The notes under the pieces were generated by a model. That model was not told the origin of the DNA and did no database searches. It saw only the letters and a program-made list of their open reading frames with translations. This document shows, piece by piece, positions 737 to 54,542 of a stretch of 60,000 nt of DNA. The stretch is from Lytechinus pictus (lineage: Eukaryota), in NCBI RefSeq assembly GCF_037042905.1, contig NC_087251.1, forward strand, positions 6,450,001 through 6,510,000. The letters are read 5' to 3'. Position 1 is the first letter of the stretch, and each line of letters opens with the position of its first letter. The translations under genes and the position numbers were made by a program.

Positions 737-9841
<9,105 letters not shown>

Positions 9842-14840: not shown

Positions 14841-15122
14841 CATAAATAATATGGGTTAGGGTTGGGTCATCATTACAGCCCCCCCCCCCCCCCTCTTCCC
14901 GATCAAATTTTCCTAGAGATGCCCCTGCTCAAGGTATTCAACTCATTTCATATCGTTAGTGGGTTTCTAAATGTGAAACGTAATCCATATATGTAGTAAG
15001 CATTATTTATGCCTTTTGACATGTAGCCTTAAGACCTAATAAAAACATTTTTTGTTTGTTTAATTTTCATATTTTAACCATAGCATCTGAAGATTTGATC
15101 GCCAGTCATTGGAAGCAATACG

Positions 15123-18100
15123 ATGTCCGGGGTTTTGCGAGTTGTCCTTTTCATTTTCATGGGTGGTTTGGCCATGCAGTGGCCTATCACCCAGCATCTA
15201 ATCTTTGACATGGCTTGTCATCGCTTAGGCTATTCAGATGATGTTTGCTCCGATCTTGGCAACCACACGGACGCTGAACACGCTGTACAGGGCCAAGCCT
15301 CTACCATAATGACATACCAATCTGTCTTCTGTGATATTCCTGGAGCAGTGGCGTCCCTTATTCTAGGAGCGCAAAGTGACAAGGTTGGACGAAAACGGAT
15401 CATGCTCCTTCCAATAATGGGCGTGACACTTCTGCTTGTGATCCTGCTTCTAGGTTCAATGATACATACGACGTCCATCGTCTTCATAATGGCCAGTTCT
15501 GTTGCTTTGGGTATCAGTGGTGGAATAGGTACCTTCATGAGCACAGTCACTAACTATATCACGGACATCACCCCTGAAGAACAACGGACTGAGACACTAA
15601 GTAAAACTTTACCGTTCATGGGGTTAGGTGTCATCGTAGGGCTTATCTCCTCTGGTATCCTAACCCAACAACTCGGGGTGTCAGCGGCCTATTTCATAGA
15701 CTTTATCTTAATGTTAGTAGTGCTCTACCTGGTTACCTTCCACCTTAAGGAGTCTAAACCAACCACTGACAAGTCCAAGGATACCACATCTCATCCGGAA
15801 GATCAGTCTCAGGGCGTCGGTTCCGCCATATGGGAAAACCTGACCGCTGGTGTAAAAGTATTCACGTCTGAGAAAGATGGCTTCGTCAGGATTCAGTTGG
15901 GAATGATAGTTCTGCAAGGCATGGTTGGATTTGCGATTATGGTTGGTAAGTTTTTTTTTCTGACCCCAACATGACATGACCCCATATAGATTGTGGTTAA
16001 AGACCCATTCCACAGAATGGATCTAGACCAATTAAAGACCAACCATTGGCCATGAATTTTAGCAGTTTCCAAAATCGACATGTAGTCTCTGTTGAATGGC
16101 TCTGAATAGGCCTACCCCTGAAACACTACTGAAAGACTAAAAACAACTTTCCTAGTTTTTCAAATTTGGACCTCGAAGGTAGCTGACATTTTACTGGGAG
16201 ACTAATAAGACCGTTAAGAGATCATGTGGCACACTGTCAGAGATCTTTGAATGATCAATAAAGATCTCTTAAAAGTGACCAAGACACCCCTCCGAGAATT
16301 CTGAAATACTGACTGATACTTGTCTTCAGTGGCGTAGCTACGGGGGGGGGGGGGGGGGCCTGGGGGCACATGCCCCCCCCCCCCCCCGGTGCCCCCCCCC
16401 CCCCCTAAAAAAATTGGCAGAGCAAAAAAAAAGGGAGAAAGAAGAAAAGAAAAAAGGAAAAGAAGGAGAAAGACAGAAGAAAAAAAGAAGAGGAAAATAA
16501 GAGGAGGAAGACGAGTGAATAAAATAATGTGAGGGGAAGACTTGCAAAAAAAAAAATCTTTCACGTTACTATATGAAATTTTTGCTTGCGCTTCGCGCCA
16601 GAATTGCCTGTTCGATGATATTCATATCTTGCTCAATAGGCTGATATGGAGCAAGTTTTGAAGTCAATATACAAAACATTTTAGCTCGGACATCGAGCTT
16701 TCATTATTTTTTTTTCATTTACAAATTTAAGTGCTCTGTAAAATGTCCGTTTTATGGTCTACATATCAGCATTTTAAGCTCACGCTGCGTGGTCACATTG
16801 TTTGATTTGCCAAGTTCCTATTGTCTACGTGTATTCCATAAAGTTCCATTAAATAAATGTATTCAGAATGCCCAGATTCTAGGTCTAAATCTAAAACATG
16901 CGCGATAGCCTGCATGTTCTTTATTTAAAATGTACTTATAAATTATCCATTTTCACATCAGAATGTCAACAATTGTCTGATCACGCTTCACGATCGCATT
17001 ATTAATGATACCCAATTAACTATATCCTATTTATGATTTACAAAACATGAATAGAGTGTCCCGCTTTTAGGTCTAAAATCTCAATTTTCTTCCTTTCGCG
17101 CTTCGCGCTCGCATCAATATTGTTTATTTACAGACCTATCCCGTTTATTAATACAAAAAGTGCTTAGAGAATGACCAATTTTTTAGGTCGGAGTGTCAAA
17201 AAAAATTGCTCGCGCTTTGCGCTCCCATTATTGAAATATATACCGTCTTCGTGGGTAACTGTAAGCAGTCCTTAACATGTCCCTTTTCGATAATGCTAGA
17301 ACAGTTAATAAAAATTTCTGCTCGCGCTTGGCGTTCGCAGTAATCATCTAGTTACATACGAATCTTGTTCAGGATCATACATAACATTGCCCAGAATATT
17401 AGATTTTCAGCACAAAATACATGAAAGTTAAAAAAAATCGCTCGCGCTTCGCGCTCGCACTTTTTATAAGGCTTATGAGATTATTTAATGTTTATGTTGT
17501 TTTATAAGAATAAAACTAAGTAGTGACTGATCGGGGAAAATATAGGTGAAGATAATTTCGGGCCCCGTCCCCTATTGGAGAAAGTCGGATCCGCCCTTGT
17601 GACACATACACACACACCGGAAAAAATGGTGCCCCCCCCCCTGAAAAAGCAAGCCCCCCCCCCCCCCCCCCCCAGGAAAAAAATCCTAGCTACGCCACTG
17701 CTTGTCTTGTCCGGTTGAATTCAGACTGGCGTTCTTTCAGAGATCTTTCTTTCGACAAATGATATTTCGATGGACTTTCTATGGTCTTCCGATTATTTTC
17801 TTTCAAGGATCTTTCAGCAGTTTTTCAGGGATTTCCACAAAACGATAGATGTTCGAGGGATCTTGGGAAGTCTAACATTTTAAGTTCATCCATAGATCTC
17901 TGAAAGACCACTGAAAGACCAATTTCCTGAAAGACTGTTTTAAACCATTTCGTAAAGTTTTAGAGCCCATGGAGACCAAGAAGATCGCTGGGAGATCGGT
18001 CCGTAATCGCATAAGACCTCAAAGATCATTGGAAATGATTAAACAATAAAGCAAGTTATAGATGGTCCTTCAGGAGTTATTCAGCGCTCGCGCTTTCTTG

Positions 18101-21117: not shown

Positions 21118-21572
21118 AACAGGGTCACATAACCCAAATGCTTACAATCAATCTGTAACAACAAAAATATTATGGTTCAAAAGTCTTACCAATCAGAAAG
21201 AGTTTTTAATTTTTTTTTTGTATTGATTGTAAACTTGTTATTATGAGGCCCCTGTTCTAATTGATAAAAATGTAAATTATACCAGCTATATAGGCTGGAT
21301 GTAATTTTTCAAGTTTTGTGATTGATTTGTCATTGTAATATGTATGAGATTTATGTATATCAGATTCTGAATTTCAATAAACTGAAGAAAAAAATGACAG
21401 ATATTTCGTATCCAGGTTCTTATTGTTTTAATATCTAAGGTCCACCTCTTACGTTATTATACTGTGTAACACGTGTAACACCGTATCTGCATCTTACATA
21501 ATTATTCGATCTTGAAATCATGCAGCTGAGGCATTTTACAGATGGGGGGCCTATTAGGGGCATGTCCTGGAC

Positions 21573-21686
21573 CAGTGGCGGACCGTGACCTGGAGGAGAC
21601 AAAACATTGGAGGGGCACAGCATTGTTCACAAACAATACAGTGCCCCTCCAATGCTTTGTCTCCTCCGGGTCACGGTCCGCCACTG
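21573..21686. mobile_element. 114-bp hairpin hAT-like MITE
   Basis: Two 55-bp arms (4 mismatches) around a 4-nt loop; CAGTGGCGG termini; 8-bp TSD tcctggac (21565-21572, 21687-21694). Confidence 0.92.
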
Positions 21687-21972
21687 TCCTGGACCCCTCC
21701 CCCCAATAAAATAAAGAGGTTCCGAGACCGAGGTTAAAAAAGGATATTGAGAATAGGAAAGGAAATGAAAAAGAAGAGGGTACAATTGTAAAGGCACTTC
21801 ATACACCGTGCGGTTGTAATTGTCTATTTGGCATTCCATAATTTTATCGTCTGCGAAGATTGTAATTTTTGGCCCAAAACTGGGGCACGTTATGGCGATG
21901 GAAAAGGAATTGCATCGTTAATCGGCATATTATTTATGCCTGCCTGAGACTTTGGTAACAAGTGGCACAGTG

Positions 21973-22698
21973 GTAAGCATAAATAGAACTTTTAGGTTTA
22001 ATTTCAAGAGAACTCGCTCAGTATGCATACAGCAATCAGTGTTATCCTACTGTAGAACTTCAATAGCTCGTGTATCAGATTGATGCATTGTACGCATAGT
22101 GTGCAGGTCTTTGTGTAGTACTATAATTATGAATATTTGTTTGTATGGAAATATACAGAAACTCTTAATCAGTATCGAATTTATTGTGTAATGATAACTC
22201 AACTAGATTAAACTCAAACCTCAGTCCTGAGGAAATAAGCACTCAAATACGCCAAAACTTGATATAAGATGGTTGACATTACATTTATTGCTCACATAAC
22301 ATTTTTGCAATTACATTGTCTATTTAAGCTGTTTTCGACACCCATTGTATACAGTTAAATACATTTACAAATATTCCTTATTTGTAGGATATCAGTTTAG
22401 AGTTTATTTCTAATTTTCACAACACTTAGTGTATTAAATACTGGACAGTATTGCTATTATGATAATTTAAGTCCAATTACTTTAAATTGAAGTTAATTGT
22501 TATTCACCTTAGTATAATGTTTAGACTCATAATACAGTGGAACCTTATTATTAAAGGCACTGATGTGGCAGACTTTACCTATAACAATGTATCTTCTCTC
22601 GTCCCAAGTGCCTCGTTATAATGCAGTTGCACTGTAACATGCTTTGATATGATGATATACTTATGTTGGATTTTGTTCATTTGTTTGTTTGTTTATAG
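21973..22698 (+). other. Predicted 726-nt spliceosomal intron inside the LTR
   Basis: Donor TG|GTAAGC (the only GTAAG I found in the LTR), branch-like CTTAT 22660-22664, T-rich tract ttgtttgtttgtttatAG; spliced junction is complementary to the PBS-position sequence. 3' LTR equivalent 30692-34440. Confidence 0.6.
22535..22634. mobile_element. Decayed Tc1/pogo(Tigger)-like MITE embedded in the LTR (second copy 34277-34376)
   Basis: TA-cagtggaaccttattattaaaggcact ... agtgcctcgttataatgcagttgcactg-TA: imperfect TIRs with TA flanks. Confidence 0.6.
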
Positions 22699-22862
22699 TT
22701 TTTACGGGAATCTAAGGAACAAAGTGAATCAGCAAGCCAAAGAGTCAGCTTTGACCATAATGAAGAGACTAGATTCAATAAAGCTGTTTTGACTATTGTT
22801 TACCCAGTATGAGAACACGTGCGAGCTTTCGTTTGTTTGTCGTCGTAGTCCGGGCAGGCACA

Positions 22863-22873
22863 GTAAAAACACT
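22863..22873 (+). promoter_or_regulatory. Non-tRNA primer-binding site candidate GTAAAAACACT
   Basis: Directly abuts the 5' LTR; no TGG; 11/11 complement of the spliced LTR junction AGTG(21969-21972)|TTTTTAC(22699-22705). Confidence 0.6.
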
Positions 22874-24284
22874 TCCAACGTAGCGTCAAAATGGCCTCAT
22901 CATCATCAACAAGCCTGATTATCAAGATGGAGCCAATAAATAGACGCTAGACATTTGAGTTGAGTTCAACATGACATTTCAGCTGGATGAACCTACGAAC
23001 ATACATATGTAACTACGTTTGGCGACGAGCACAGGATATACGCTAGAGATCAGCTAGAATTGCACCATAACGCATGAATCTCAGAATCTGAGTGGATGTT
23101 GATGGATTTTGATTTGGATTGTGAAACGATGTTGTGATCCAGTCATTTCTCATATGTCTCAATAGTTCGAGGTATGTAGAGCTGTGTATGGACGCTATGC
23201 AGTTTGATCTACACTAATGTTACAGTTACAATGAATTATGGTTGCAATGCAGCAGTGTCATCGATTTATTATTGAGGTGTATTGTGGACGCTAAGCTGGA
23301 ATCGGCCACAATCGTTATTATACACTGTTATAAAATACGTGGCTTTACCATAATTTGCACCAGCAGTTGGCATGCAGCCATAATGTAACAGGACTAAAGC
23401 CCATGTTAGCGGATCAGCCAAGCCCAAGTCCAAGACTATTCTGTGTCAGCCTCTCGTAGCAGCCCTAGCATAATTTATGAACTAGCCTAATCCAGCTGAA
23501 GTCCAGCTTGAACAACAGCCCGGGAATCGGCCCGGTCAAGCCATACAGCCCGGGAGCCAGCGTGGTTTAGTCTTGTACAGTCCAGGTCCAGCCAGGTTTG
23601 AACTTGAAGCATAAATCAAGCCAACAACATTGAATTTATAAATGAAACATTGGATCTGAACTTGATGAAATAAAAGTAGTTAGAACCAGAGCTATAATAG
23701 GCTCTGTGAAACTTCAAGACTCTTGATAACAAATTAACAGAGGTCAAGTAAAAGTTGAATTTTAATAACTATTTCATGTATAGTAGTCTATTGAAAAGTG
23801 TTTCCAATATGATTCTGCAAATACTGCATGTTTTGTTTGCAGGTAGCCAGCATTAGTTTTGTGCTCAAGTGACACGAAAGTTAAAGGTGTAATTTCATTA
23901 CAAAGTGATATTGACATCGCAGTTCAGAGTCAAGCAAGGAAGGAATATGTGGCGATGTTGAACTTTATCGCATGATCGCGTGGTCTGCATTCAAGCCCTT
24001 TTGATAAGCGAATTTTGAGGCGTGCGTAAAGGCTTTATTGGGAGATGTAAAATCAAATTACTATGGAGTATTTGTAATTGCATTAGCAAGAAGCATTTTA
24101 AGCGGTTTTACATTGATGAGGTTGGTAGGCTTAGCGCTGTAGCTTTGCTTAAATTGATGTTTGATTTCACTCTAGTTGCATGACAATTTAATTTGGTCAA
24201 TTTGCTGTACAAGGTGCAAGTGCATGGTTTAGCATAAGAGGCCAGCTCCTTATTACACTTCTGTTGTGTCAAAGCCAATTAAAC

Positions 24285-27200
24285 ATGGCAGATTCAAGAA
24301 AGTCATCAAGGGAGAGGCAGCCCACGGAAAAAATGGCCGCTCTTCAGGCCTCTGAAGAATCAAAGACAGAGCGGAAGTTTTTCAAGATGTATGGCTCCCT
24401 TAAGGCCACAGTAAAGGCAGCTAGAACAATCATTAAGACAGAGACAGAAGAAGGTCCCATCAAACAACAGATATCCATACTGGAAGCTGGAGAGAGGGAA
24501 TTGATGGAAACCTACGAGATTTTGAGGAGACACAAGGTCCCCATAAGAGAGGCCACCACGAGGATGGACCGTGCCAACGCAATGGTCAGAGATAGCCTCA
24601 ACGCCTTGGAAGAAGTTCTGGGATCCCTAGAAGGTCCTTTTGACGCCGAGGATCGGAAGCAGATAGCGAAAGAATTCTTGAAACAAGAATATGCTTCATC
24701 GGTCTTCAGCTCAATTTTAAGCGAAATGGACCAAGGGGTTGAAACCAGCCAACTGCGTGGAGCCACACCAGTAATTGACATTGATAGCAATCCTGGACAG
24801 CCTGTAGAATCTCGTAACACACCATCACTTCTTCCTCAAGACAAAATGTACCCAGGAGTTGGAGTAAACCAACCACCTGAAGGTATTCAAGGGCAGTCAG
24901 CAGAATTTCCTGCCAAGACGTCATCTCCTTCCTTTCAAGATGAGATGGGCCCAGAGTTTAGAGTAGGCCAGCTACATGATAGTCTACCTGATTCGCATGT
25001 GGAACCTCGTGACAAGACACCACTACAGCCGCCTCAGACAACGTCGGTTGACGTCCAGGGCTTATGTAAGGCTTTAGCAGACAACATGTACCACACAAGA
25101 CTTCCGATGCCAGTGCCACGCACCTTTAGTGGGGATCCGCTCGAGTTTGTAGAGTTCGACAAAGGTTTCAAGACTTTGATCGAAAACCGTGGCATACCAC
25201 CAACAGAGATGCTGTATTACCTGAAGCAGTACCTGACTGGTCCGGCAAGGGAGGCCGTGGAAGGTTTCTTTTTCGGGGACTCCAAAGAGGCATATGATGG
25301 GGCATGGAGGTGCCTTCGACAGAGGTATGGTCATCCTTTTAATATCCAACAGGCGTTCCGGAAGAAGCTAAGTGCTTGGCCGAAGATAGCCTCCAAAGAT
25401 GCCATAGGTCTTCAGAAGTTTGCGGACTACTTAAAGTCTTGTGATGATGCTATGCCATATGTCACTGGCCTCCAGGTGCTAAACGACTGCTATGAGAATC
25501 AAAAGATGATAGCCAAACTTCCAGACTGGCTGATTAGTAGCTGGAATAGGGTGGTATCAAATGAGTTGGAAGGCGGCAGCTATCCTTCATTTTCTAAGTT
25601 TGTGAAATTTGTTGCTAAGGAGGCAAGGATAGCCAACAATCCCATTTCTTCTCTAGGTGCCCTGAAATCTGAGGACTCTCAAAGAGAATCAAGTCCCAAG
25701 ACCTTCAAGATCAAGCGAGAAGCAAGAAATAAAGGATCTGCTTTGGCTGTCAACACCAAGGAAAGTGCCAAAGGCAAGAACATCCCAAACCAAGTCAAGA
25801 AGGCTCCAAAACCTTGCTGCCTGTGTAGTGAAACTGGACACAAGTCCGAGGACTGTGACAAGTTTTTGGCCAAGCCACTTTCTGAACGCAGGAAGTTTGT
25901 TCAAGAAAATCATGTATGCTTTGGTTGCTTACAGAAGGGGCATTTTTCTAAGGCATGTAAACAAAGGCTGAAGTGTAGTACATGTGGTAAGCGCCATCCC
26001 ACGGCTCTTCATGAGGAAAACCCTACGATAAGAGAGGACAATGCGCACAAGAGTGAAGGAGCTTCTAAGGACAGGGCTACGTCTTGCCAAGTCCGTTCTG
26101 GAAAACAAGCTAGCACTTCGATGATTGTACCAGTGTGGGTCGCGGCAGAACAAGCACCATCGTCAGAGATTCTGACTTACGCCCTCCTGGATACCCAGAG
26201 TGATTCATCGTTCATTCTAGATGAAGTAGCGCAAGCCCTGAATGCTAAGCAGCAACCCATACGCTTAAAGTTATCTACTATGACTTCGTCATCGAACATT
26301 GATTGCAGCGTGACCTCAAGTATCTTAGTTAGAGGTATGATGTCGCCCTCCCAGCTCAAGATAGGAAAATGCTATACGCGTGACTTCATACCGACTGATA
26401 GAGAACACATCCCAAGCAGAAGTACTGCTGAAAAGTGGACTCATCTCCAAGATGTTGCAAGAGAGATGCCAGCACTTCAGAGATGCGAAGTCGGCCTACT
26501 GATAGGCTATAATTGCCCAAGAGCTCTGACACCAAGACAAGTAGTTACTGGTAGCGATGTAGAACCATTTGCTGTTCGAACTGACCTCGGCTGGAGTATT
26601 GTTGGCTTTGCCGAAGAAGAGAATGCCATGGACTTCAGTAGCCAGTGTGGGAGGGTTTCTACTCGCGAGATACCATTTCCGAAGCCAAAGGAGATCATAG
26701 GGTTGCTTGAGGCAGATTTCGCAGAGGACAAATCGCCGGACAAAGCATGCTCTCAGAATGACCTACAATTCTTGAAACACCTTGAGACCAACATTGTACA
26801 ATGCGAGGATGGTCATTTGCAGATGCCGCTGCCCTTCAAGACCCGGCCAAACCTTCCAAGCAATAAAAGGTTGGCAACCGTTCGATTCGAACACCTCCAT
26901 CGAAAGCTTAAGAAGGACGAAGCATATAGAGACAACTATACAAGCTTCATGACAGATATCATTAATGGTGGCTTTGCAGAACAAGTAGAGACCAAGGCGC
27001 CGCCTGGAGAAACAAATTACATACCACATCATGGTGTGTACCATCCAATGAAGAAGAAGATGAGAATAGTGTTTGATTGTTCCGCGAAGTACGGCGGCAC
27101 CTGCCTTAACGATCATCTGCTCAAGGGACCGGACATGATAAACTCATTGGTGGGAGTCCTTTGTCGGTTCAGGAAGCACAATGTAGCAGTGCTATGTGAT

Positions 27201-30011
27201 GTTGAGAAGATGTTCTTTCAGTTTAGGGTCGCTGAGGATGACCGAGACCTCCTGCGCTTCCTGTGGTTCCAAGATAACGACATCAACAAGGAGCCAGTGG
27301 ATTATCGCATGAACGTCCATCTTTTTGGTGCCGCTTCTTCGCCAGGTTGCGCCAATTATGGCTTAAAGTATCTGGCTAGACATTGCAGCAATGAATTTCC
27401 ATTGGCATCTCGTTTCGTCGAGCGCAGCTTCTATGTGGATGATGGGCTGGTGAGTGTATCCAGTGAAGAGGAAGCCATTCAGTTGGCCAATGAAGCCAGA
27501 CAACTTTGCAGCAAGGGTGGCTTACGTCTCCACAAGTTTGTTTCGAATTCTAAGGCAGTTCTGGAGAGTCTGCCAAAGTCTGAGCGTGCCAGTGATGTCA
27601 CTGACTCAAACTTGGATTTTGAGGATCAAGTAGAGCGTGCTCTGGGGATAGTTTGGAATGTGGCCACGGATGCCTTTTGTTTCAGAATTTCCCTGAAAGA
27701 GAAACCAATGACACGGCGGGGAATTCTGTCCATAGTCGCATCCCTTTATGACCCTCTCGGATTTGTGGCTCCGGTCGTTCTCGATGGCAAGAGAATCCTT
27801 CAAGAAATGTGTCGTAGCGGGCTTGGGTGGGATGATCCAGTATCCGAGAACCTGCAATCAAGGTGGGAGCAATGGTGTAAGGAAATCCCGCAGCTAGAGG
27901 AGCTAAGAATACCTCGGTGTTATCATCCTGCTGAGTTTGGTGATCCTGTAACAGTGCAGCTACACCATTTCTCGGATGCCAGCAAGTCTGGTTATGGCCA
28001 ATGCTCTTATTTGCGTCTTGTTAACCAGAAAGGAGAAGTTCACTGTTGTCTGATCTTCGGCAAATCAAGGGTTGCGCCAACCAAGGTGGTTACAATTCCC
28101 AGGTTAGAGTTGACAGCGGCAGTTGTGTCAGCTAAGGTGCACTCTATGTTGAAAGAAGAGCTAGAGTATCATGATGCCGAAGATTTCTTCTGGACAGATT
28201 CCCAAGTAGTCCTGGGATACATCCACAATGATGCGCGGAGGTTCCACACGTTTGTTGCTAATCGAGTCCAGCTAATTAGAGATAGGACTTCTCCCGACCA
28301 ATGGCATTATGTCTCGACTGATCAGAACCCTGCTGACCATGCTTCCAGAGGATTGAGCGTAAGTCAGCTGGGTAGCACAAATTGGTTCCAAGGACCAAGC
28401 TTCCTCTGGGAGAAAGACTTTGCAGTAGGAAGTATCTCTCCGACACTCGCCGTTGGGGATCCGGAAGTGAGAGCAACCAACCTATCGACAACTACTCATT
28501 CGGAACCGTTGAACCTCCTCTCGCGCCTTACCAGGATCTCTAGTTGGAAGATGATGATCAAGGTATTGGCTCGTCTACGGATGGTAGTGAAGGGAGCAAG
28601 ACAAGGTTCCTTAGTTCGTGAGAGAAAGGACGCAGAGCTGTTCGTTCTGCGGTTAGTTCAACAGGAAGCTTACCCTGAAGAAATCAAGGCTCTGACGTCG
28701 GACAAGACCGTTAAAACGACAAGTACCATCCATGACCTTGACCCAATAATCCTTGATGGGATCACGCGAGTGAAGGGCAGACTTGGCGAACTATCGACAG
28801 AAGTGGCTCACCCTGTTATCCTGCCCAAGCGTAGCCCTATCACTCGGGCGATTATCCGCCACTTCCATGAGGACATCAAACATCAGGGTCGAGGAATGAC
28901 GCAGAATCACCTGAGAGCCAATGGATTCTGGATTGTAAACGGATCTAAAGTCGTTGCAGAGGTATTGCGAAAGTGTGTGTCATGCAGACGTCTTCGTAGG
29001 CCTCAAGAAGAGCAGAAAATGGCAAACTTGCCAAGAGATCGAGTAGAACCTTCGGCTCCTTTCACGAATGTGGGTATGGATTGTTTCGGTCCTTTCTTTG
29101 TAAGGAGAGGTCGTTCTGATATTAAGCGATATGGGCTTATATTCACATGTCTCTGTTCAAGAGGTATCCACATTGAGATGCTCGACGACATGACTACCGA
29201 CGCATTCATCAATGCTCTCCGCTGTTTCATAGCAATTAGGGGAGCTGTCAGACAGATTAGGTGCGACCAAGGCAGTAACTTCGTAGGAGCAAGAAACGAG
29301 CTCCAATCTGCATTGAGAGAGATGACTTCAGACCAAGTGAATACGTACCTTGCAGACCAGCAATGTGAATTTGTCTTCAACGCCCCTCACTCAAGTCACG
29401 CAGGTGGCGTGTGGGAAAGACAGATTCGAACCGTCAGAAGTGTCTTAAGGGCTACCATAGACCTGTGTCCAGGAAGACTCACAGACTCCGCTCTTCGTAC
29501 CTTGTTTTACGAAGCCATGGCAATCGTCAATAGCCGACCGTTAACAGTGACCAATATGAATGACCCAAGTGCGGATGCACCTCTCACGCCAAACCACCTC
29601 CTTACTCTGAAGAGGACGGTTCCGTTGCCCCCTCCTGGGCAATTTGTGAAGGAGGATGTGTACACGCGTAAAGCCTGGAGAAGGGTTCAGTTCTTACTGG
29701 AACAGTTCTGGTCAAGATGGCGGAAAGAGTACTTGTTGGGACTTCAAAGACGACAGAAATGGACGATGCCCAGACGGAATTTACAAGTGGGAGACATTGT
29801 ATTGCTCACTGACGATGAAGCTCCGCGTATGAAATGGCCAATTGCGATGGTCGCAGAAGCCACTCCTGATGAAGATGGTCTGGTCAGACGGGTACAGGTG
29901 CGCGTTGGAACGAAAGACCTTGACAACAAAGGTCGTCCAAACAAGAAGCTTGCCGAATACTGGAGGCCGGTTCAGAAGCTCGTACTGCTTCTGGAAAAGG
30001 TACCTCCATAG
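24285..30011 (+). CDS. BEL/Pao gag-pol polyprotein (~1908 aa from the first ATG)
   Basis: Uninterrupted ORF: DUF1759-like gag (FSGDPLEF), three Cys/His knuckles (CCLCSETGHKSEDC, CFGCLQKGHFSKAC, CSTCGKRHPTALH), protease ALLDTQS, RT FYVDD, RNase H LHHFSDAS...TIPRLEL, integrase HEDIKH...CVSC, GMDCFGP, CDQGSNF, WERQI, DUF5641-like C-terminus. Confidence 0.97.
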   Translation: MADSRKSSRERQPTEKMAALQASEESKTERKFFKMYGSLKATVKAARTIIKTETEEGPIKQQISILEAGERELMETYEILRRHKVPIREATTRMDRANAMVRDSLNALEEVLGSLEGPFDAEDRKQIAKEFLKQEYASSVFSSILSEMDQGVETSQLRGATPVIDIDSNPGQPVESRNTPSLLPQDKMYPGVGVNQPPEGIQGQSAEFPAKTSSPSFQDEMGPEFRVGQLHDSLPDSHVEPRDKTPLQPPQTTSVDVQGLCKALADNMYHTRLPMPVPRTFSGDPLEFVEFDKGFKTLIENRGIPPTEMLYYLKQYLTGPAREAVEGFFFGDSKEAYDGAWRCLRQRYGHPFNIQQAFRKKLSAWPKIASKDAIGLQKFADYLKSCDDAMPYVTGLQVLNDCYENQKMIAKLPDWLISSWNRVVSNELEGGSYPSFSKFVKFVAKEARIANNPISSLGALKSEDSQRESSPKTFKIKREARNKGSALAVNTKESAKGKNIPNQVKKAPKPCCLCSETGHKSEDCDKFLAKPLSERRKFVQENHVCFGCLQKGHFSKACKQRLKCSTCGKRHPTALHEENPTIREDNAHKSEGASKDRATSCQVRSGKQASTSMIVPVWVAAEQAPSSEILTYALLDTQSDSSFILDEVAQALNAKQQPIRLKLSTMTSSSNIDCSVTSSILVRGMMSPSQLKIGKCYTRDFIPTDREHIPSRSTAEKWTHLQDVAREMPALQRCEVGLLIGYNCPRALTPRQVVTGSDVEPFAVRTDLGWSIVGFAEEENAMDFSSQCGRVSTREIPFPKPKEIIGLLEADFAEDKSPDKACSQNDLQFLKHLETNIVQCEDGHLQMPLPFKTRPNLPSNKRLATVRFEHLHRKLKKDEAYRDNYTSFMTDIINGGFAEQVETKAPPGETNYIPHHGVYHPMKKKMRIVFDCSAKYGGTCLNDHLLKGPDMINSLVGVLCRFRKHNVAVLCDVEKMFFQFRVAEDDRDLLRFLWFQDNDINKEPVDYRMNVHLFGAASSPGCANYGLKYLARHCSNEFPLASRFVERSFYVDDGLVSVSSEEEAIQLANEARQLCSKGGLRLHKFVSNSKAVLESLPKSERASDVTDSNLDFEDQVERALGIVWNVATDAFCFRISLKEKPMTRRGILSIVASLYDPLGFVAPVVLDGKRILQEMCRSGLGWDDPVSENLQSRWEQWCKEIPQLEELRIPRCYHPAEFGDPVTVQLHHFSDASKSGYGQCSYLRLVNQKGEVHCCLIFGKSRVAPTKVVTIPRLELTAAVVSAKVHSMLKEELEYHDAEDFFWTDSQVVLGYIHNDARRFHTFVANRVQLIRDRTSPDQWHYVSTDQNPADHASRGLSVSQLGSTNWFQGPSFLWEKDFAVGSISPTLAVGDPEVRATNLSTTTHSEPLNLLSRLTRISSWKMMIKVLARLRMVVKGARQGSLVRERKDAELFVLRLVQQEAYPEEIKALTSDKTVKTTSTIHDLDPIILDGITRVKGRLGELSTEVAHPVILPKRSPITRAIIRHFHEDIKHQGRGMTQNHLRANGFWIVNGSKVVAEVLRKCVSCRRLRRPQEEQKMANLPRDRVEPSAPFTNVGMDCFGPFFVRRGRSDIKRYGLIFTCLCSRGIHIEMLDDMTTDAFINALRCFIAIRGAVRQIRCDQGSNFVGARNELQSALREMTSDQVNTYLADQQCEFVFNAPHSSHAGGVWERQIRTVRSVLRATIDLCPGRLTDSALRTLFYEAMAIVNSRPLTVTNMNDPSADAPLTPNHLLTLKRTVPLPPPGQFVKEDVYTRKAWRRVQFLLEQFWSRWRKEYLLGLQRRQKWTMPRRNLQVGDIVLLTDDEAPRMKWPIAMVAEATPDEDGLVRRVQVRVGTKDLDNKGRPNKKLAEYWRPVQKLVLLLEKVPP

Positions 30012-31251
30012 AGCAGGTATGTATGTACACTTGAGATTGTTTGGAGCGGGTACAAATGTTTGACCTTGCATTTGCACATGTACTTCGTTTTCTGGTACAG
30101 TTTAAAAATTTAGGACTCAAATTCTGATCTTGTTTGCTGCGAATTTTAGATACACAGCGCTTAAATATTGTCGCAACCTTTAAGCTTGCCTTACAACCTT
30201 TGCAGTGTGTGTTATAATCTTTTACAGCACATGTTATAAACGTGCATTGTTTGAGTTCCGCATCATCACTTATGCCATTCTGGTTTGATCAAGCTATTCA
30301 ATTGCCATGTTATTCGTGTTGTAGATTGCAAGTGTACCAATTTACATGCAAGAGGTGTATGGAGTGCTTGCTTAAAAATTTCCATATTATGGTCACATTA
30401 TTTCACATGCACCACTTATGTAATACTAGTAAATGCATTTTCATATATATGTAAGTGTACTCATGCATGTGATTATGTTACCAGTGAAGGCAAATTTGGT
30501 GGGAGTGTAAAGGCACTTCATACACCGTGCGGTTGTAATTGTCTATTTGGCATTCCATAATTTTATCGTCTGCGAAGATTGTAATTTTTGGCCCAAAACT
30601 GGGGCACGTTATGGCGATGGAAAAGGAATTGCATCGTTAATCGGCATATTATTTATGCCTGCCTGAGACTTTGGTAACAAGTGGCACAGTGGTAAGCATA
30701 AATAGAACTTTTAGGTTTAATTTCAAGAGAACTCGCTCAGTATGCATACAGCAATCAGTGTTATCCTACTGTAGAACTTCAATAGCTCGTGTATCAGATT
30801 GATGCATTGTACGCATAGTGTGCAGGTCTTTGTGTAGTACTATAATTATGAATATTTGTTTGTATGGAAATATACAGAAACTCTTAATCAGTATCGAATT
30901 TATTGTGTAATGATAACTCAACTAGATTAAACTCAAACCTCAGTCCTGAGGAAATAAGCACTCAAATACGCCAAAACTTGATATAAGATGGTTGACATTA
31001 CATTTATTGCTCACATAACATTTTTGCAATTACATTGTCTATTTAAGCTGTTTTCGACACCCATTGTATACAGTTAAATACATTTACAAATATTCCTTAT
31101 TTGTAGGATATCAGTTTAGAGTTTATTTCTAATTTTCACAACACTTAGTGTATTAAATACTGGACAGTATTGCTATTATGATAATTTAAGTCCAATTACT
31201 TTAAATTGAAGTTAATTGTTATTCACCTTAGTATAATGTTTAGACTCATAA

Positions 31252-34200
31252 ATTAATGTTGTAAATCGGATCAAAAATCAGATCGAAAATCGGATCGGCA
31301 GTTAAGCTTCTAAAATCGAAATCGAATCGAAAATCGAATCGGCGATGTTTAAAAACAAAGGAATACATCAAAATGTTGTTCGCGGTCGCGCGCATCTTCC
31401 TGACAAAGTCACAAAGACGAATGCATTGGAATGGAAGTCGCCAACATGCGCGATCGTTTTAAAGCCAGGGGTTTTGAGGTGTTATTGCTTTAAAATAAAC
31501 CGAGTGATTTTTATTAGAAAGATAAACGAAAGACGCATCTTCCGAGCAAAGGCGCAAAGGAAAATAAAATGAAAATATTTCTCATAGATCACAGGTTAAT
31601 GAACGATCGGCGGGACATCTTTTAGAAGTATTTTTAGGTGCTAGCGATTTAGAATTATTGGAATGATCTCTTACGACGCATCATCTTAAAGTCGCAAGTG
31701 CAATTAAAATGAAGTAGAAGACGCAAGCACGCACAATAAGCTCCGTCAATAGTACAGTCTTTAAAAGTTTATGGCGGGGTCCGCTATCACCACGAGGTTG
31801 AAAATAAAATGTATATCATCATAAACGATGTAAGAGAGTAACGCAATAAGCTCCGTCAGTAGCACGATCTTTAAAAGTTCACGGCGGGGTCCGCTATCAC
31901 CACGAGGTTGAAAATAAAATGTAAATCATCATAAACGATGTAAGAGAGTAACGCAATAAGCTCCGTCAATAGTACAGTCTTTAAAAGTTTATGGCGGGGT
32001 CCGCTATCACCACGAGGTTGAAGAGAAGATTTATATCATTATAAAGGGGGTAAGAGAGTAGCGCAGTGAGCTCCGTCGGTAATACGACCTTTCAAAGTTC
32101 ACGGCGGCATCCGCTATCACCACGAGGTTGAAAATAAAATGTATATCATCATAAACGATGTAAGAGAGTAACGCAATAAGCTCCGTCAGTAGCACGATCT
32201 TCAAAAGTTCACGGCGGGGTCCGCTATCACCACGAGGTTGAAAATAAAATGTAAATCATCATAAACGATGTAAGAGAGTAACGCAATGAGCTCCGTCAAT
32301 AGTACGACCTTTCAAACTTCACGGCGGCATCCGCTATCACCACGAGGTTGAAAATAAAATGTATATCATCATAAACGATGTAAGAGAGTAACGCAATGAG
32401 CTCCGTCAATAGTACGACCTTTCAAAGTTCACGGCGGCATCCGCTATCACCACGAGGTTGAAAATAAAATGTATATCATCATAAACGATGTAAGAGAGTA
32501 ACGCAATAAGCTCCGTCAATAGTACAGTCTTTAAAAGTTTATGGCGGGGTCCGCTATCACCACGAGGTTGAAAATAAAATGTAAATCATCATAAACGATG
32601 TAAGAGAGTAACGCAATGAGCTCCGTCAATAGTACGACCTTTCAAAGTTCACGGCGGCATCCGCTATCACCACGAGGTTGAAAATAAAATGTATATCATC
32701 ATAAACGATGTAAGAGAGTAGCGCAGTGAGCTCCGTCGGTAATACGACCTTTCAAAGTTCACGGCGGCATCCGCTATCACCACGAGGTTGAAAATAAAAT
32801 GTATATCATCATAAACGATGTAAGAGAGTAACGCAATAAGCTCCGTCAATAGTACAGTCTTTAAAAGTTTATGGCGGGGTCCGCTATCACCACGAGGTTG
32901 AAGAGAAGATTTATATCATCATAAACGATGTAAGAGAGTAACGCAATAAGCTCCGTCAATAGTACAGTCTTTAAAAGTTTATGGCGGGGTCCGCTATCAC
33001 CACGAGGTTGAAGAGAAGATTTATATCATTATAAAGGGGGTAAGAGAGTAGCGCAGTGAGCTCCGTCGGTAATACGACCTTTCAAAGTTCACGGCGGCAT
33101 CCGCTATCACCACGAGGTTGAAAATAAAATGTATATCATCATAAACGATGTAAGAGAGTAACGCAGTGAGCTCCGTCGGTAATACGACCTTTCAAAGTTC
33201 ACGGCGGCGTCCGCTATCACCACGAGGTTGAAAATAAAATGTATATCATCATAAACGATGTAAGAGAGTAAAGCTCCGTCAATAGTACAGTCTTTAAAAG
33301 TTTATGGCGGGGTCCGCTATCACCACGAGGTTGAAGAGAAGATTTATATCATTATAAAGGGGGTAAGAGAGTAGCGCAGTGAGCTCCGTCGGTAATACGA
33401 CCTTTCAAAGTTCATGGCGGCTTCCGCTATCACCACGAGGTTGAAAATAAAATGAATATCATCATAAACGATGTAAGAGAGCAACGCAATAAGCTCCGTC
33501 AATAGTACAGTCTTTAAAAGTTTATGGCGGGGTCCGCTATCACCACGAGGTTGAAGAGAAGATTTATATCATTATAAACGATGTAAGAGAGTAACGCAAT
33601 GAGCTCCGTCAGTAGCACGATTTTTAAAAGTTCACGGCGGGGTCCGCTATCACCACGAGGTTGAAAATAAAATGTATATCATCATAAACGATGTAAGAGA
33701 GTAACGCAATAAGCTCCGTCAATAGTACAGTCTTTAAAAGTTTATGGCGGGGTCCGCTATCACCACGAGGTTGAAGAGAAGATTTATATCATTATAAAGG
33801 GGGTAAGAGAGTAGCGCAGTGAGCTCCGTCGGTAATACGACCTTTCAAAGTTCACGGCGGCATCCGCTATCACCACGAGGTTGAAAATAAAATGTATATA
33901 ATCATAAACGATGTAAGAGAGTAACGCAGTGAGCTCCGTCGGTAATACGACCTTTCAAAGTTCACGGCGGCATCCGCTATCACCATGAGTTGGAAGAGAA
34001 GCGGAAGAGAAGATATCTATCCTCTTGAACATCGCCATAGATAATACCGCGTCTTTCTCCCTGAATAATGCGACCTCTAAATAGCTAGCACCTCAAAAAC
34101 AATCTTGAAATATGTTCTGAGCGATCACGCACTGTAACCAGATCTACGCCGATTTTTATTTTCGATTTTTTCCTTCAAGGGGCATGATCGAAGATCGGCA

Positions 34201-34266
34201 AGTGATTGCCGATTGTGGTGAAATCGAATGGAATCGGTTGCCGATTGCAAAATCGGTTACAAGCTT
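31252..34266. mobile_element. Non-autonomous hAT-like DNA transposon carrying a 110-bp tandem array
   Basis: 8-bp TSD actcataa (31244-31251 / 34267-34274; alternative parse ctcataat with TIR taatgttgtaa / ttacaagctta); empty site visible in the 5' LTR at 22525-22532; dense AATCG/CGATT subterminal repeats; inverted blocks ~31583-31653 and ~34075-34147; no transposase. Confidence 0.85.
31732..33999. repeat. Tandem array of 21 x 110-bp variant units
   Basis: Core ccgctatcac at 31781, 31891, 32001 ... 33211 (110-bp steps), one 103-bp unit, then 33314 ... 33974. Confidence 0.97.
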
Positions 34267-34890
34267 ACTCATAATACAGTGGAACCTTATTATTAAAGGC
34301 ACTGATGTGGCAGACTTTACCTATAACAATGTATCTTCTCTCGTCCCAAGTGCCTCGTTATAATGCAGTTGCACTGTAACATGCTTTGATATGATGATAT
34401 ACTTATGTTGGATTTTGTTCATTTGTTTGTTTGTTTATAGTTTTTACGGGAATCTAAGGAACAAAGTGAATCAGCAAGCCAAAGAGTCAGCTTTGACCAT
34501 AATGAAGAGACTAGATTCAATAAAGCTGTTTTGACTATTGTTTACCCAGTATGAGAACACGTGCGAGCTTTCGTTTGTTTGTCGTCGTAGTCCGGGCAGG
34601 CACAACAATATCGAACGATTTTTTTGATATTGTGTTCAAATTTGCAGCTTAATTTGATTTTTAATTCAAAATGTAACTTTTTTGCTTACTCCCTTCACTC
34701 TCTCACGAATATTTAGAGATTAACCCCGTACGCCATTTATGCCGCCACTAATATTTTTACTTTTATCCCCACTGGGATGAGGAAACATCAACAAATAATA
34801 GTTATGGATAATCTATAGACAGTTGCTAACATGATTATAAGTACAAGGAGCAGCTGACCATGAATAGTCGAATTCCAAGGTCATTTATTG

Positions 34891-35045
34891 AGTGCCGTGG
34901 CTGAGTGGTCTAAGGCGCCTGGCTATTGATGGAAAGTCCGGGGTTCGATCCCCGGCCTCAGCAACTATGCCAGTGAGCAAGGCATTTAATCGACAATGCG
35001 TCTTTTATCCTGCATTCAAATAAATGGAAATGCTATATGTATATT
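34891..35045 (+). mobile_element. tRNA-derived SINE fragment
   Basis: A box TGGCTGAGTGG, B box GGTTCGATCCC, followed by CORE-like gagcaaggcattta. Confidence 0.75.
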
Positions 35046-35565
35046 ATTGGTTAAAAAAATACACTGTTAGTGCACTAGCTACAGTGTACCTTTTATGCAA
35101 CGTATCCAATACCGATTCCTCTTCATTGAGCAGTTAAGAGATTGCTAAGTGCCTTGAACCCGGCCTTGAAGTTCTCTACCGATATATTCTATTTGTTTTC
35201 TATTAACAGAATTATTATAAGTAAATTAAGGTTTATATAATTCTAAGGTTTTCTTTTTCATCTTGTATAGCACCTATAGAAACATTGGTCATAGCGCTAT
35301 ATAATTTATCATGTAAAATGATTGATATAATATTCTGTAAATTTCTATGCAATATCAGATATAATATAGGATACTTTAAGACTCAGTAAATGCAGTAGGC
35401 GACAGCTGGGTAGGCTAATTATTGAAAGAAATAAATATAACGAGCGTATACAGACAGGGAGTAAGATAAACTGTCATCAATAATATTTTGAAATGGGCAA
35501 ATTTTAAAGTATATTGTAATAATGATTTATATTAAGAGTTGCGCTCTACAATGGGATAGGGAATA

Positions 35566-38865: not shown

Positions 38866-40558
38866 TTTTTGTCTCGCCTGCGTAGCGGAGCGAGACATAG
38901 GTATCACTATTTCCGGCGTCGTCGGCGTCGTCGTCGTCAACAATTGTGTTGTACACCCAATAACTTTCTATAGCTTCGAGGTAGGATCACCAAATTCATA
39001 CCAGAGGTCCATCTCTTGAAGGCACAGGTCAAGTTCGAATATGAGTCGAATTTGATTAAGGTCAAAGGTCAATGAACTTTCCATGACTGGCACTGTGCTA
39101 TGTTGTACACCCAATAACTTTCTACAGCTTCGAGGTAGGATCACCAAATTCATACCATAGGTCCATCTCTTGAAGGCACAGGTCAAGTTCGAATATGAGT
39201 CGAATTTGATTAAGGTCAAAGGTCAAAGGTCAATGAACTTTCCATGACTGGCACTGTGCTATGTTGTACACCCAATAACTTTCTATAGCTTCGAGGTAGG
39301 ATCACCAAATTCATACCAGAGGTCCATCTCCTGAAGGCACAGGTCAAGTTCGAATATGAGTCGAATTTGAATAAGGTCAAAGGTCAATGAACTTTCCATG
39401 ACTGGCACTGTGCTGTGTTGTACACACAATAACTTTCTAAAGCTTTGAAGTGAGATCGCCAAATTCATAACAGAGGTCCATCTCCTGAAGGCACAGGTCA
39501 AGTTCGAATATGAGTCAAATTTGAATAAGGTCAAGGGTCAAAGGTCAATGAACTTTCCATGACTGGCACTGTGCTGTGTTGTACACACAATTACTTTCTA
39601 AAGCTTCGAAGTGAGATCGCCAAATTCATAACAGAGGTCCATCTCCTGACGGCACAGGTCAAGTTCGAATATGAGTCAAATTTGAATAAGGTCAAGGGTC
39701 AAAGGTCAATGAACTTTCCATAACTGGCACTGTGCTGTGCTGTACACACAATAACTTTCTATATCTTCGAGGTAGGATTGCCAAATTCATACAAGGGGTC
39801 CATCTTTTGAAGGTGCAGGTCAAGTTCGAATGTGAGTTGAATTTGATTAAGGTCAAAGGTCAATGAACTTTCCATGACTGGCACTGTGCTGTGTTGTACA
39901 CACAATAACTTTCTATAGCTTCGAGGTGGGATCGCCAAACTTGTAACAGAGGTCCATCTCTTGAAGGTACAGGACATTTTGCCCTCACATCTATCATAGC
40001 CTTTAATCAAAATGTGCTTATAAAAAAACTGCACTCTTTTAAACTTCCTACTCATACCCTATTGCTTATTTTATCTTGTAGTACTTCACTCTTGCATCAT
40101 TTACTGATCATATGCACACAGATCAATTTAGAAAACCCTACTGCTAAAATGAAGGCAAGATGGCTAAAAATCACACACATTAAGTTTTTATATTTATCTT
40201 TCATGCACAATCTTTCCTCCATTTTTTCAAACAATAAGTTTGCCTTAACACCTTAATAATTAATTTAATTTTACAATTTTACTCACATTATTATTAATTA
40301 CATTCTTTTTCACTAACATTAATTTCCTTACTTGCATGGAAATAATTATAGCTTCATAGTATTAACAGCATTCTTAGTGTTGTCTGATTTTCTAGGGATA
40401 AAGTAGGCCTATACCATGAATGCATATGTAAACTGTCAATACCACAATTCACCCCCTAAACTGCCGACAGCCTCAGATGTCATATAGCATAGTTTTGACA
40501 TGCAGTCTCTTCAGGACTGCAATATGCAGGCGAGACAACGCTTGGCGTTTGCCTTGTT
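38866..40558 (+). mobile_element. Helentron-associated non-autonomous element (HINE/DINE-1-like)
   Basis: T-run, 5' subTIR gtctcgcctgc (38871-38881) with partial inverse gcgagac (38890-38896), (GTC/GGC)n microsatellite, central tandem repeats, 3' subTIR gcaggcgagac (40526-40536), hairpin aacgc-ttg-gcgtt, ends in TT. Confidence 0.85.
38945..39973. repeat. 154/161-bp tandem repeat, ~6.6 copies
   Basis: gtacac anchors at 38951, 39105, 39266, 39420, 39581, 39742, 39896; length classes differ by one 7-bp ggtcaaa-type module. Confidence 0.95.
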
Positions 40559-50300: not shown

Positions 50301-53300
50301 TCAAAATAAATAAAGAGAAATACACAGTCACAACACTCCTGGGAACTGTAGATAATTTTTTGGGGAAAAAAATTAAATCATTCTCTTTGAATATATTTAC
50401 CATACTTGAAGATGTTTCATCTCAATGGATGTTTTCATGTGTATAATTTGTCTTTTTTCTGACATAGTGAAAAGCATCATAGAATATTATTGAGACTCAG
50501 TCATTGTGAGATCATGTCTAACTTTTAATTAGCTCCATGAAACATCAACTAGAAATGGAATAGGTAAGATGTTGACATTTCTTTTGATTGGGGGCTATCT
50601 TTTGTACTTCTGATCATTTTAGAATTACATAATCTTATATTGAGAACAGCCATTTTGGGGGCCTATCCCAATTTGCAAGTGCTATCTGGATCATTTGGGG
50701 CCTTTCAAACTATTGTATCCTTCCCTTGCCCCTGGCCATTTCTTATGATGAATTTGGTATTGAATGTTCTCATGAATTTGTTTGATTATGCATTAGTACG
50801 TTATCCCTGTTGACAAATGCATATTAACAATGTATATTTCAACCATCTAAAGTCCATATTGAGCGTTTTGTTTACTTACCAAACTCTGTTGACTCTACAA
50901 GTCTTGTTGCTATCGATCCCTGTACTGCTCTTGTCAGACCAAACAGACAACCAATCACAGAAACTGAATCAAATCAAAGACAATGCACTTTAAAAAGACT
51001 GATATAACTAAATGATAATATGAACATTAATTAAATCCTCATTCCATAGAGGTGCACTGAAGTCCTTTATCTACACACAGCAGACTATTTTTGTAAAGAA
51101 TTTGAAGTTATTTTAAACTGCTGCACATAGGAGATATTGCATGTGAATCTGATTGTCTTTCCAAAATATCAATTTTTTTCTTATAGTAGCTTGAAGGATG
51201 ATCGGTCATTATCTGGTACTTCTCGCTAGGTGTTTTTAGGCTGTATCCCATGATTATTGCCAGATTTAGAGACTGGTACACATTTTTTTTTTTTTTTGGG
51301 GGGGGGGTGTAAAATTGGTTCAAGATTAAGTTGGTTTCAATAATAAAGTGCCTTCAATCAAATTGGAGTTGAAATATTAACCACCATCCATGTTTTGGAG
51401 GATTATAGTGGCAGGACATGACCACTGGTTAACTCTCATATCACAGTTAAGTAATGGTAAATGTACACAGTGTAAGGTAATACATGTATGACCTTATTAA
51501 AAGAGAATTGGACAATGCCGTATTTCAGTTTTGATGAATATCATCATAACATTATACTCATAGTCAGGTTTAACTTAGACCATGGTCTAACTCTGTGCTA
51601 AAATTATGGGAGCCAGAAATTCAAAAATTCTTTTCATATTGTATATTTCTTATGTTTATTATTTTGTTTCCTTCTGATTTTATATTGAACAAAAATACCT
51701 CAGTATACTTCAGTTATCATTCCCAGATAATTTGAGTTTCATTTGAGTTAATAAATTGGATGTGTATTGTTAGGGATTTGTGCCCCAATTGGCTCTCAAT
51801 AGTTAAACCAAAACTTTAAACCAAGGTTTAATTTGAACCCGTCTCCAGAATACGGGCCTATAGCCTTTATTCTGAAGTCCAGTTTAACTAAGACCATGGA
51901 CTAACTCTAACTCTGTGCTACAATAATTATGGGAAGGCAAAAATGTCAAAATTTTCATTAACAACAGTTTCTGATGTTCACTGAGCTCTGTCACCATGCT
52001 ACAATAATGAAGAAAATTAACTTAGTTATTATTCCAAGACAGTTGTGAATGACCTGAATACAAATGAGCTGATGAATCAAACATGTTTGTGTCACATTTG
52101 GCTTTCCATACTTAAACCACAGGTTTAGACCAGAGATTGAATGAAAGGTAAAAGAAAGTAGTTGCAGCAGACAATCATTTCATGAGAAAGTCTTTAAAAT
52201 CAAGGTTAAATGCCACCAAAATCTCATTAATCTACCTTAGTTTTGGTACATTGAAATAAACTGATCTTCAAAGACCGATAATTCTGATGATCACTAACAC
52301 AAAAAGCATGTGGGCAGTGTATTAATATTGCTTCGAATAATACCTGACATTCTATGGAATTCCGTGCTTATTTTGCTCATTTCTCAGCAATTACACATTT
52401 TTCTAGAGCCATTTGGCACATATTTTTTATTTATACATAACACTTGGGAGGTGATTTTATTAATTTATTGGATTCTGTTCGAATTCATTTTGAGATCTTT
52501 ACCACAACTGGTATTTTTCTTCAAACCAAAGTTCAGAATATGGGTCATAGTGTTAAAAAGTAACTCAGAATGTGCAAAAGCAGCCCAATGTATAAGTATA
52601 TAAGTATTTTTATTGTCCATAAATTGAAATTCGTCTTGGTTGGCACCACATTATGTAAATTCAACAGAGAGGTTATTCACTAGTAAATGATAAGATGGAT
52701 TTTAATACCTGACATCATCACTCCAGTGGTCTTAGCTACAGCCATGGTGGTGTAACCAGCGATGGTAGATAATATACCCAGCTCTGCCCACATCATATCC
52801 CTGTCTGGTGTGCTATGATTGGTCACCTTCGCTATGATAGGGACTACCAAGATGAGAGCCACACCCTTTAAGGCGGTCCTAAGGGCAAGGTATACACCCA
52901 CTGTGGATGGGGGCCAGCTGAGAGGGGAATGCTTGGTATATAAGATGGTCAGATCCATGTCACCTAATATAATAACAATTTGTATGAAGTTATTCAAATT
53001 AATTAGTCAAGGCCTTTACATGGATGAAACATATTACATAAGAAACATAGTTCAAGCAAGTCTGGATTATTCTACAATGAGTTTTTATTCCGAACTCACT
53101 GTCCAATTCTAATTATATCTATTGCCTTGGCAATTTCAATAGGCTTTTTTTTTCTTGGTCTATTTTGTGGCTTGCTTTTTATAAACTTGAATGCTAGGTT
53201 TTTCTTAATTTCTGTTCACTACATTTTTTGTCAGTTATACTCAGTCAATGAATAATCCAAAAGGCTTTAATGATAAAATGAGCTTTAAAACCATCAACAC

Positions 53301-54226: not shown

Positions 54227-54542
54227 GATTACTGAATAATGGTGGTTGTGTAGTTATCACCTAACGCATTCCATTGCTCGCTGATATTGCTGAGTGACCA
54301 ATCAGAAACAATCTGGAAAAATAAAACACAAACAAGTGTTCAACTTCAAGCACAAACAAATTCAGTACGATCTAGTCGGATCAGTACGGTCTAGTCACAT
54401 GTGCTATTACCTAAATCTAATTCTTGATTCAATTCTTGATTGATAACTTTAATGTTATACCAATGATCATCTTAAAAAATACCTTTAAAGTTTAATTATT
54501 AGGTCTTTTTATTTAACCAAGTTATTTAAAGTAGGGACTTCA

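Follow-up and report, generated by a model that had tools for sequence, protein, structure and literature searches.

A BEL/Pao-type LTR retrotransposon from the sea urchin Lytechinus pictus carries an intron-like interval in each of its LTRs, and the ends of the two flanking exons, once joined, are complementary to the element's primer-binding site position. Comparison with related sequences indicates that a primer-splitting LTR intron, retained in a leaky manner, is a real feature of a BEL/Pao-type clade. The window analysed here is a stretch of 60,000 nucleotides (contig NC_087251.1, positions 6,450,001 to 6,510,000 of assembly GCF_037042905.1), and the coordinates given for the Lytechinus element refer to this window. 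Its features are as follows.

21787-34604, plus strand: BEL/Pao-type LTR retrotransposon, young
21782-21786, second copy 34605-34609, plus strand: target-site duplication ACAAT, 5 nt
21787-22862, plus strand: 5' LTR, 1076 nt, TGT...ACA
21969-21972, plus strand: exon end AGTG preceding the donor, complementary to 22870-22873; possible RNA start
21973-22698, plus strand: putative GT-AG intron, 726 nt, within the 5' LTR
22533-22636 and 34275-34378, no strand assigned: MITE-like insert bearing terminal inverted repeats; both LTRs have it within the intron
22699-22705, plus strand: exon start TTTTTAC past the acceptor, complementary to 22863-22869; predicted 3' part of the primer
22777-22782, 3' LTR copy 34519-34524, plus strand: AATAAA poly(A) hexamer
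22863-22873, plus strand: primer-binding site position, 11 nt, beginning GTA rather than TGG
24285-30011, plus strand: one ORF for gag-pol that encodes BEL/Pao domains, 1908 aa when counted from the first Met
30498-30505, plus strand: polypurine tract GGTGGGAG
30506-34604, plus strand: 3' LTR, identical to the 5' LTR save one insert
30692-34440, plus strand: 3' copy of the putative intron, 3749 nt including the insert
31252-34266, no strand assigned: 3-kb non-coding insert, 3' LTR only, with an 8-nt flanking direct repeat

The two LTRs align with 0 mismatches over 1076 nt, except for a 3023-nt insert in the 3' copy. The first-pass annotation had placed an intron-like GT-AG interval in both LTRs, with both foreign insertions inside it, and its coordinates for the two copies are right. 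It had also read the persistence of the MITE as fitting an insertion-tolerant region. The presence of the MITE in both LTRs fits this idea, as does the 16-fold range of intron lengths described below. The 3-kb insert is uninformative in this respect; it is found in one LTR only and hence arrived after integration. This insert contains 20.6 copies of a 110-nt unit (tandem array at 31734-33989), and from the length of its flanking repeat we take it to be hAT-like. The left end of the MITE also occurs with different flanks in sequencing runs X9 and X15.

The gag-pol ORF, which runs from stop to stop over 24192-30011, encodes DUF1759, RVT_1, Peptidase_A17, Integrase_H2C2 (25.1 bits, slightly below the 25.5 cut-off) and DUF5641, in that order, and three Cys-His boxes were recognised by reading. 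Its best protein matches are labelled as sea urchins, followed by many fish at ~60-63%. The polyprotein (24285-30011) is 100% identical to a protein labelled Lytechinus pictus and 99% identical (1172/1188) to one labelled Strongylocentrotus purpuratus; near-identical element DNA is present in runs from two differently labelled organisms. Judged from these sequences, recent horizontal transfer between urchin genera is possible. An Rfam scan of 21500-35500 gave 0 matches. In the surrounding DNA, a 55-nt near-perfect inverted repeat forming a MITE-like hairpin (21573-21686) precedes the element by 100 nt. Two transporter ORFs of the Major Facilitator Superfamily (15099-15974 and 53294-54253), one on each strand, flank the region, and a tandem array of 6.5 copies of 154/161-nt units occupies 38945-39973.

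By its Pol the element is of BEL/Pao type, and by the sequence that follows its LTR it departs from the ICTV description of priming. It shares with the Belpaoviridae an LTR length within 0.2-1.2 kb, a single frame for gag-pol, a triple Cys-His box, Pao-type domains and a short polypurine tract (PMC8742986). However, the ICTV profile of this family (PMC8742986) specifies a primer-binding site of 18 nt that is complementary to the 3' end of tRNA-Arg or tRNA-Gly, whereas the present clade lacks such a site and has an LTR intron. The replication of Bel/Pao elements is described in the same profile as tRNA-primed and poorly understood (PMC8742986). The tRNA-type site is absent throughout the sample: of 29 elements, the window's included, none carries TGG in the first 5 nt past the LTR.

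What, then, could serve as a primer? The donor of the interval reads CAGTG/GTAAGC at 21972/21973, and a T-rich tract ending in ATAG leads to the acceptor at 22698. The interval thus combines the U2-type features of GT-AG ends, a donor consensus and a pyrimidine-rich acceptor. The complement of 22863-22873 does not occur in the element as a contiguous match of at least 9 nt. It is present as two halves, AGTG before the donor and TTTTTAC after the acceptor, which together make 11 nt. The primer duplex has a predicted energy of -11.1 kcal/mol when the halves are joined and of -6.7 kcal/mol in the unspliced form. When RNA lacking the intron was folded from a start at 21969 or 21960, the primer helix formed in four of six folds (P 0.75-1.0); it did not form in the other two, in any of three folds starting at 21900, or in either of two unspliced folds. 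Considered by itself, the split complement in the window is only modestly better than chance: when the LTR was resampled 2000 times under a first-order Markov model, 43 of the resamples reached at least 11 nt. The signal from a single element is weak, and the case rests on comparative evidence.

Two further signals lie in the long leader. A motif that begins with TGG (23013-23035), 157 nt behind the LTR, pairs with 22834-22849 in some folds and presumably resembles the tRNA-type primer site of another element. It was rejected as a primer site since its position is wrong and it cannot define the LTR end; that TGGCG turns up in 9 of 29 leaders without a constant offset also counts against it. 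The leader may also hold a second intron, since GTATGT at 23173 resembles a donor and an acceptor-like sequence lies near 23845 or 24175; no such joint is found among the listed contig placements of four runs.

The comparative evidence is drawn from 84 loci obtained by alignment of 20 proteins (79 metagenome and 5 genome-bin loci); viral contigs scanned with the same alignment held no relatives. The BEL/Pao elements L080-L084 lie on contigs of five bacterial MAGs, where host contamination is most likely. The LTR and the primer site could be read together in 27 of the 84 loci, giving 28 elements, or 29 with that of the window. The remaining 57 loci had no readable pair of LTR and primer site, were near-duplicates of a kept family (including L029, L040, L058, L066, L069-71, L073 and L074) or had unresolved ends (L055, L083); two near-duplicate pairs, L037/L039 and L057a/L072, are still within the 29. 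The LTR boundaries of the relatives were set by hand from the printed sequence, and the LTR ends in ACA in 27 of the 29 elements. The RT-RNase H-integrase region of clade members is 51-61% identical to that of the window element.

In 22 of the 29 elements, the window included, the complement is split by GT...AG. It is contiguous in five: L023, L028 and L075 (11 nt), L008 (9 nt) and L046 (12 nt by eye, one G-U pair included). The arrangement in L004 is ambiguous. A strict test excludes L008 for its length, L046 for its need of a G-U pair, and L082, in which a split complement (4290-4700, 12 nt by eye) pairs 8 nt behind the apparent LTR end. With L008 left out and L082 counted as displaced, the complement starts at the first base past the LTR in 27 of 29 elements, as determined by script or, where one G-U pair was allowed, by eye. 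The 11-mers at the primer site are diverse, with 25 distinct sequences among the 29 elements, and a match of at least 10 nt is found with the element's own LTR in 26 of 29 cases, as against 23 of 798 swapped pairs. This co-variation of the exon ends with the primer site argues for pairing of a spliced RNA with that site.

The splice signals support the same picture. Donors were chosen solely by GT and complementarity, leaving positions +3 to +5 unselected, and the 22 split elements have A at +3 in 16, A at +4 in 13 and G at +5 in 18. The introns range from 80 to 1321 nt in the 20 of the 22 split elements that could be measured, and of 13 intron sequences that were compared none are similar, save one sister pair. 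Thus, the expectation that splice signals would be conserved among relatives while intron length varies is borne out. In split elements the primer end sits 58-225 nt upstream of the primer site. Of 25 elements that could be measured, 19 have AATAAA or ATTAAA downstream of the primer end and 6 have neither. The match itself ends at 10-13 nt. Its 5' edge is a pyrimidine-A step in 15 of the 24 elements examined, compared with a background of 0.12, although the relatives are not independent. This hints that the RNA might start at that edge, which would leave a first exon of 3-6 nt. First exons of this length are unusual. Across the elements, no AT-rich peak stood out at a constant distance upstream of the primer. 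Individual relatives show further variation: L033 (6106-7189) apparently has two introns and a middle exon in its LTR, with the second donor alone completing the complement (13 nt), and L081 (4170-4950) apparently has an extra reading frame between the primer site and gag.

How stable is the intron? It had been described as persisting in both LTRs, which is too strong, as exact intron-less LTRs exist. L075 corresponds to L057a minus a 168-nt intron, excised exactly at GT and AG. In a FastTree phylogeny of the fetched loci, based on the RT-RNase H-integrase region, each of the five contiguous forms falls on a twig of its own, surrounded by split forms; the local sister groupings of L075, L023 and L046 have a support of 1.0, support at deep nodes is weak, and L028 lacks a close relative. 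Exact intron loss in DNA copies may be taken as indirect evidence of past splicing. In L023 the primer-splitting intron of its sister L032 has been lost, and a different GT-AG interval is located 7 nt downstream. The contiguous primer of L023 is followed directly by this 358-nt interval (4317-4674, compared with 6181-6415 in L032), which looks like loss plus gain, or sliding, judged from one metagenome contig each. The arrangement in L023 hints that an intron may matter apart from the primer.

The sequencing runs carry joined forms of the window family as well. In run X9, the kind of which was guessed as RNA, a 59-nt contig is placed on 21943-21972 and 22701-22727; its 30 and 29 letters give the exact length of a 21972/22699 join. 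In run X15, which comprises 666 million letters and is presumably DNA, a 59-nt contig has a depth of 302 and a 785-nt intron contig a depth of 349. Among its listed placements the X15 59-nt contig has the donor side only, and a second part behind the acceptor is required by the bin depths: the remainder is 157 with this part and 429 without it, against a ceiling of 285. Its reading as a loose end was thus rejected, and none is listed at 21972. These contig depths, which are not copy counts, imply that intron-less forms make up ~46% of the LTR depth of the window family in X15. The intron-less LTR of ~350 nt (1076-726) for which the first-pass annotation had proposed a genome search is likewise implied by the contigs. 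Not all of these can be solo LTRs, which account for at most 138 of the depth of 302. The X9 joined form may derive from intron-less DNA copies, since X15 has such a form too.

In run X18, recorded as oligo-dT RNA, a single unbranched contig leads from the internal 3' end through U3 into the intron. The joined form is absent from X18 and X3, where contigs span U3 and the intron; such contigs leave out rare variants and may include DNA. This fits an unspliced 3' end together with a first exon too short to assemble, or no splicing, or DNA carry-over. A molecule spliced at its 5' end and unspliced at its 3' end was not observed in the contigs, which cannot show RNA ends.

In the established model of reverse transcription, both LTRs of a new copy take all sequence upstream of the transfer point from the 3' terminus of the RNA. 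Given identical intron-bearing LTRs, the parent RNA must have been unspliced over the copied stretch. The simplest scheme that joins this to the co-variation, and a somewhat probable one, is that the element acts in cis, with splicing at the 5' end building a self-primer like that of Tf1 and the intron being restored, with leakage, from a 3' LTR that is mostly unspliced. Transcription would start a few bases upstream of the donor, so that the donor is cap-proximal and efficiently used in the 5' LTR only. The joined 11-mer would fold back onto 22863-22873 and be cleaved after 22705. Strong-stop DNA of ~157 nt (22862 to 22706) would then jump to the 3' end of the RNA by means of the stretch shared up to the poly(A) site; given the hexamer behind the primer end in 19 of 25 elements, an acceptor region past the intron would be available to such a short strong-stop DNA. 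The transferred DNA would copy the retained 3' intron and place it in both new LTRs. Occasional splicing at the 3' end, or copying of a spliced 5' end that had not been cut, would yield the 350-nt intron-less LTRs.

Position-specific splicing could rest on cap-dependent loading of U1, which might also shield the AATAAA of the 5' LTR. The cap-binding complex is reported to aid U1 binding at a cap-proximal donor (PMC4889658, PMC7462061). Recognition of the last poly(A) signal has been reported to help splice the 3'-most intron (PMC4889658); such an effect works against 3' retention and would explain the leak. With ~46% intron-less LTR depth in X15, 3' retention is far from tight. Moreover, intron loss is frequent and leaves a ready-made primer, so that regeneration cannot by itself keep the intron and some cost of intron-less LTRs is needed. 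The first-pass proposal of a short self-primed strong-stop DNA followed by regeneration of the intron gains from the position of the hexamer; its weakness is that retention leaks and that regeneration alone does not suffice. Intron-less lines would be at a disadvantage, most likely because full-length, exportable RNA would require the cap-proximal donor and the intron. The intron could shield the poly(A) signal of the 5' LTR, serve export or translation, or allow escape from the silencing of intron-less DNA; introns counteract HUSH silencing in human cells (PMC8770142). The long ORFs of the intron-less relatives L075 (2024 aa) and L008 (1958 aa) count against a strict cost.

Alternatively, the primer might act in trans. 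The template would be unspliced at both ends and never lose its intron, and the 11-mer would be supplied by a separate spliced RNA, either a co-packaged second copy or a short LTR transcript. Such a scheme accounts for the co-variation and for the intron in both LTRs without position-specific splicing, it agrees with the recovery of none but unspliced contigs from X18 and X3, and the copying of a spliced partner would yield intron-less LTRs. However, the primer end in split elements lies only 58-225 nt upstream of the primer site, the helix can form in cis, and the Tf1 primer is cut from the same RNA (PMC7175516); we regard trans priming as unlikely, though it is the alternative that fares best. 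Less likely again is the absence of any positional control, with both intron copies spliced at similar partial rates and selection alone keeping the intron-bearing lines. Splicing would make the primer and intron-less daughters would fare poorly, a selection argument that has been made for Penelope (PMC2377424). The large intron-less share of LTR depth in X15 and the five separate losses are in keeping with this scheme, but frequent 3' splicing should have given the X18 and X3 contigs that run from U3 into the intron an intron-less branch, and they have none. It is very improbable that the complement is not a primer and functions in RNA folding, packaging or translation, with reverse transcription primed by a tRNA fragment or other host RNA, since, despite the tRNA priming given for the family (PMC8742986) and the TGG-starting motif in the leader, the complement begins at the first base past the LTR in 27 of 29 elements, the 25 different 11-mers include 0 beginning with TGG, and a site 157 nt downstream cannot set the LTR end.

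The cis mechanism has its closest parallel in the fission yeast elements Tf1/Tf2 and Tj1 (Tf1/sushi group, Ty3/gypsy), which have no tRNA site, as is the case here. In Tf1/sushi elements the primer site is complementary to ~11 bases at the 5' end of the element's RNA (PMC7175516, PMC4600332, PMC6317226), and a like complement is present in the window element; the Tf1 RNA is cut after base 11 (PMC7175516). Self-priming is also predicted for the plant Tcn1 and TAR lineages (PMC7175516, PMC4600332, PMC6317226). The primer of Tf1/sushi is contiguous in the LTR, whereas in the present clade an intron interrupts it in 22 of 29 elements; in the window element the 11-nt match exists only across the splice junction. 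A U5-leader stem adjoining the primer duplex is a Tf1/sushi feature, according to a reference title in PMC7175516, and in a crude duplex test against shuffles 0 of 29 elements reach a z of -2 for such a stem. The Pol proteins differ too, being Ty3/gypsy and chromovirus-related in Tf1/sushi and having Pao-type domains in the window element. The window element works like Tf1 but stands outside the Tf1/sushi group.

Introns are retained by other retroelements as well. Penelope of Drosophila virilis resembles the window element in that its genomic copies retain a short, cap-proximal intron whose splice sites are conserved; deletion of this leader intron abolished reporter protein, and selection was proposed to keep it (PMC2377424). 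However, Penelope is not an LTR element, and the sections of that paper considered here describe neither a splice-built primer nor regeneration from a second terminal copy (PMC2377424). The plant Ty3/gypsy element Ogre likewise keeps a spliceosomal intron through partial splicing, but this intron lies between coding regions, outside the LTR, and has no priming role in the account consulted (PMC6317226). No report of BEL/Pao self-priming or of the regeneration of an LTR-internal intron was found in the openly accessible literature, partly represented by excerpts, Repbase reports, subscription journals and supplements being outside its scope. A BEL/Pao survey (PMC3118150) makes no mention of primer, tRNA or intron, and the portion of PMC3601003 consulted has nothing on BEL LTR introns. 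The Sinbad paper does not mention primer binding or tRNA, and the Troyka paper does not mention self-priming, PBS, intron or splicing.

Reverse transcription is expected to erase introns. The clade described here appears to keep an intron in its LTR and to depend on it for priming. If the cis mechanism is true, the spliceosome would be tied directly to the start of reverse transcription, and the element would offer a natural test of cap-dependent splice-site choice, with two identical sequences in one RNA. Under the model, the RNA should begin a few bases upstream of 21973, cleavage should fall at 22705/22706, and the strong-stop DNA should measure 157 nt. The intron may also provide a route around the silencing of intron-less DNA, by analogy to urchins from the HUSH finding in human cells (PMC8770142). 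It is tempting, though the balance is tilted somewhat against it, to go further and propose that a single cap-dependent splice tells the identical LTRs apart throughout a widespread aquatic BEL/Pao clade: at the 5' end it would build the primer and shield the poly(A) signal, while at the 3' end the intron would be kept, would block a rival primer and would be copied back. If this more far-reaching proposal is true, the intron would be rebuilt in every round, and the element would never resemble an intron-less cDNA to its host.
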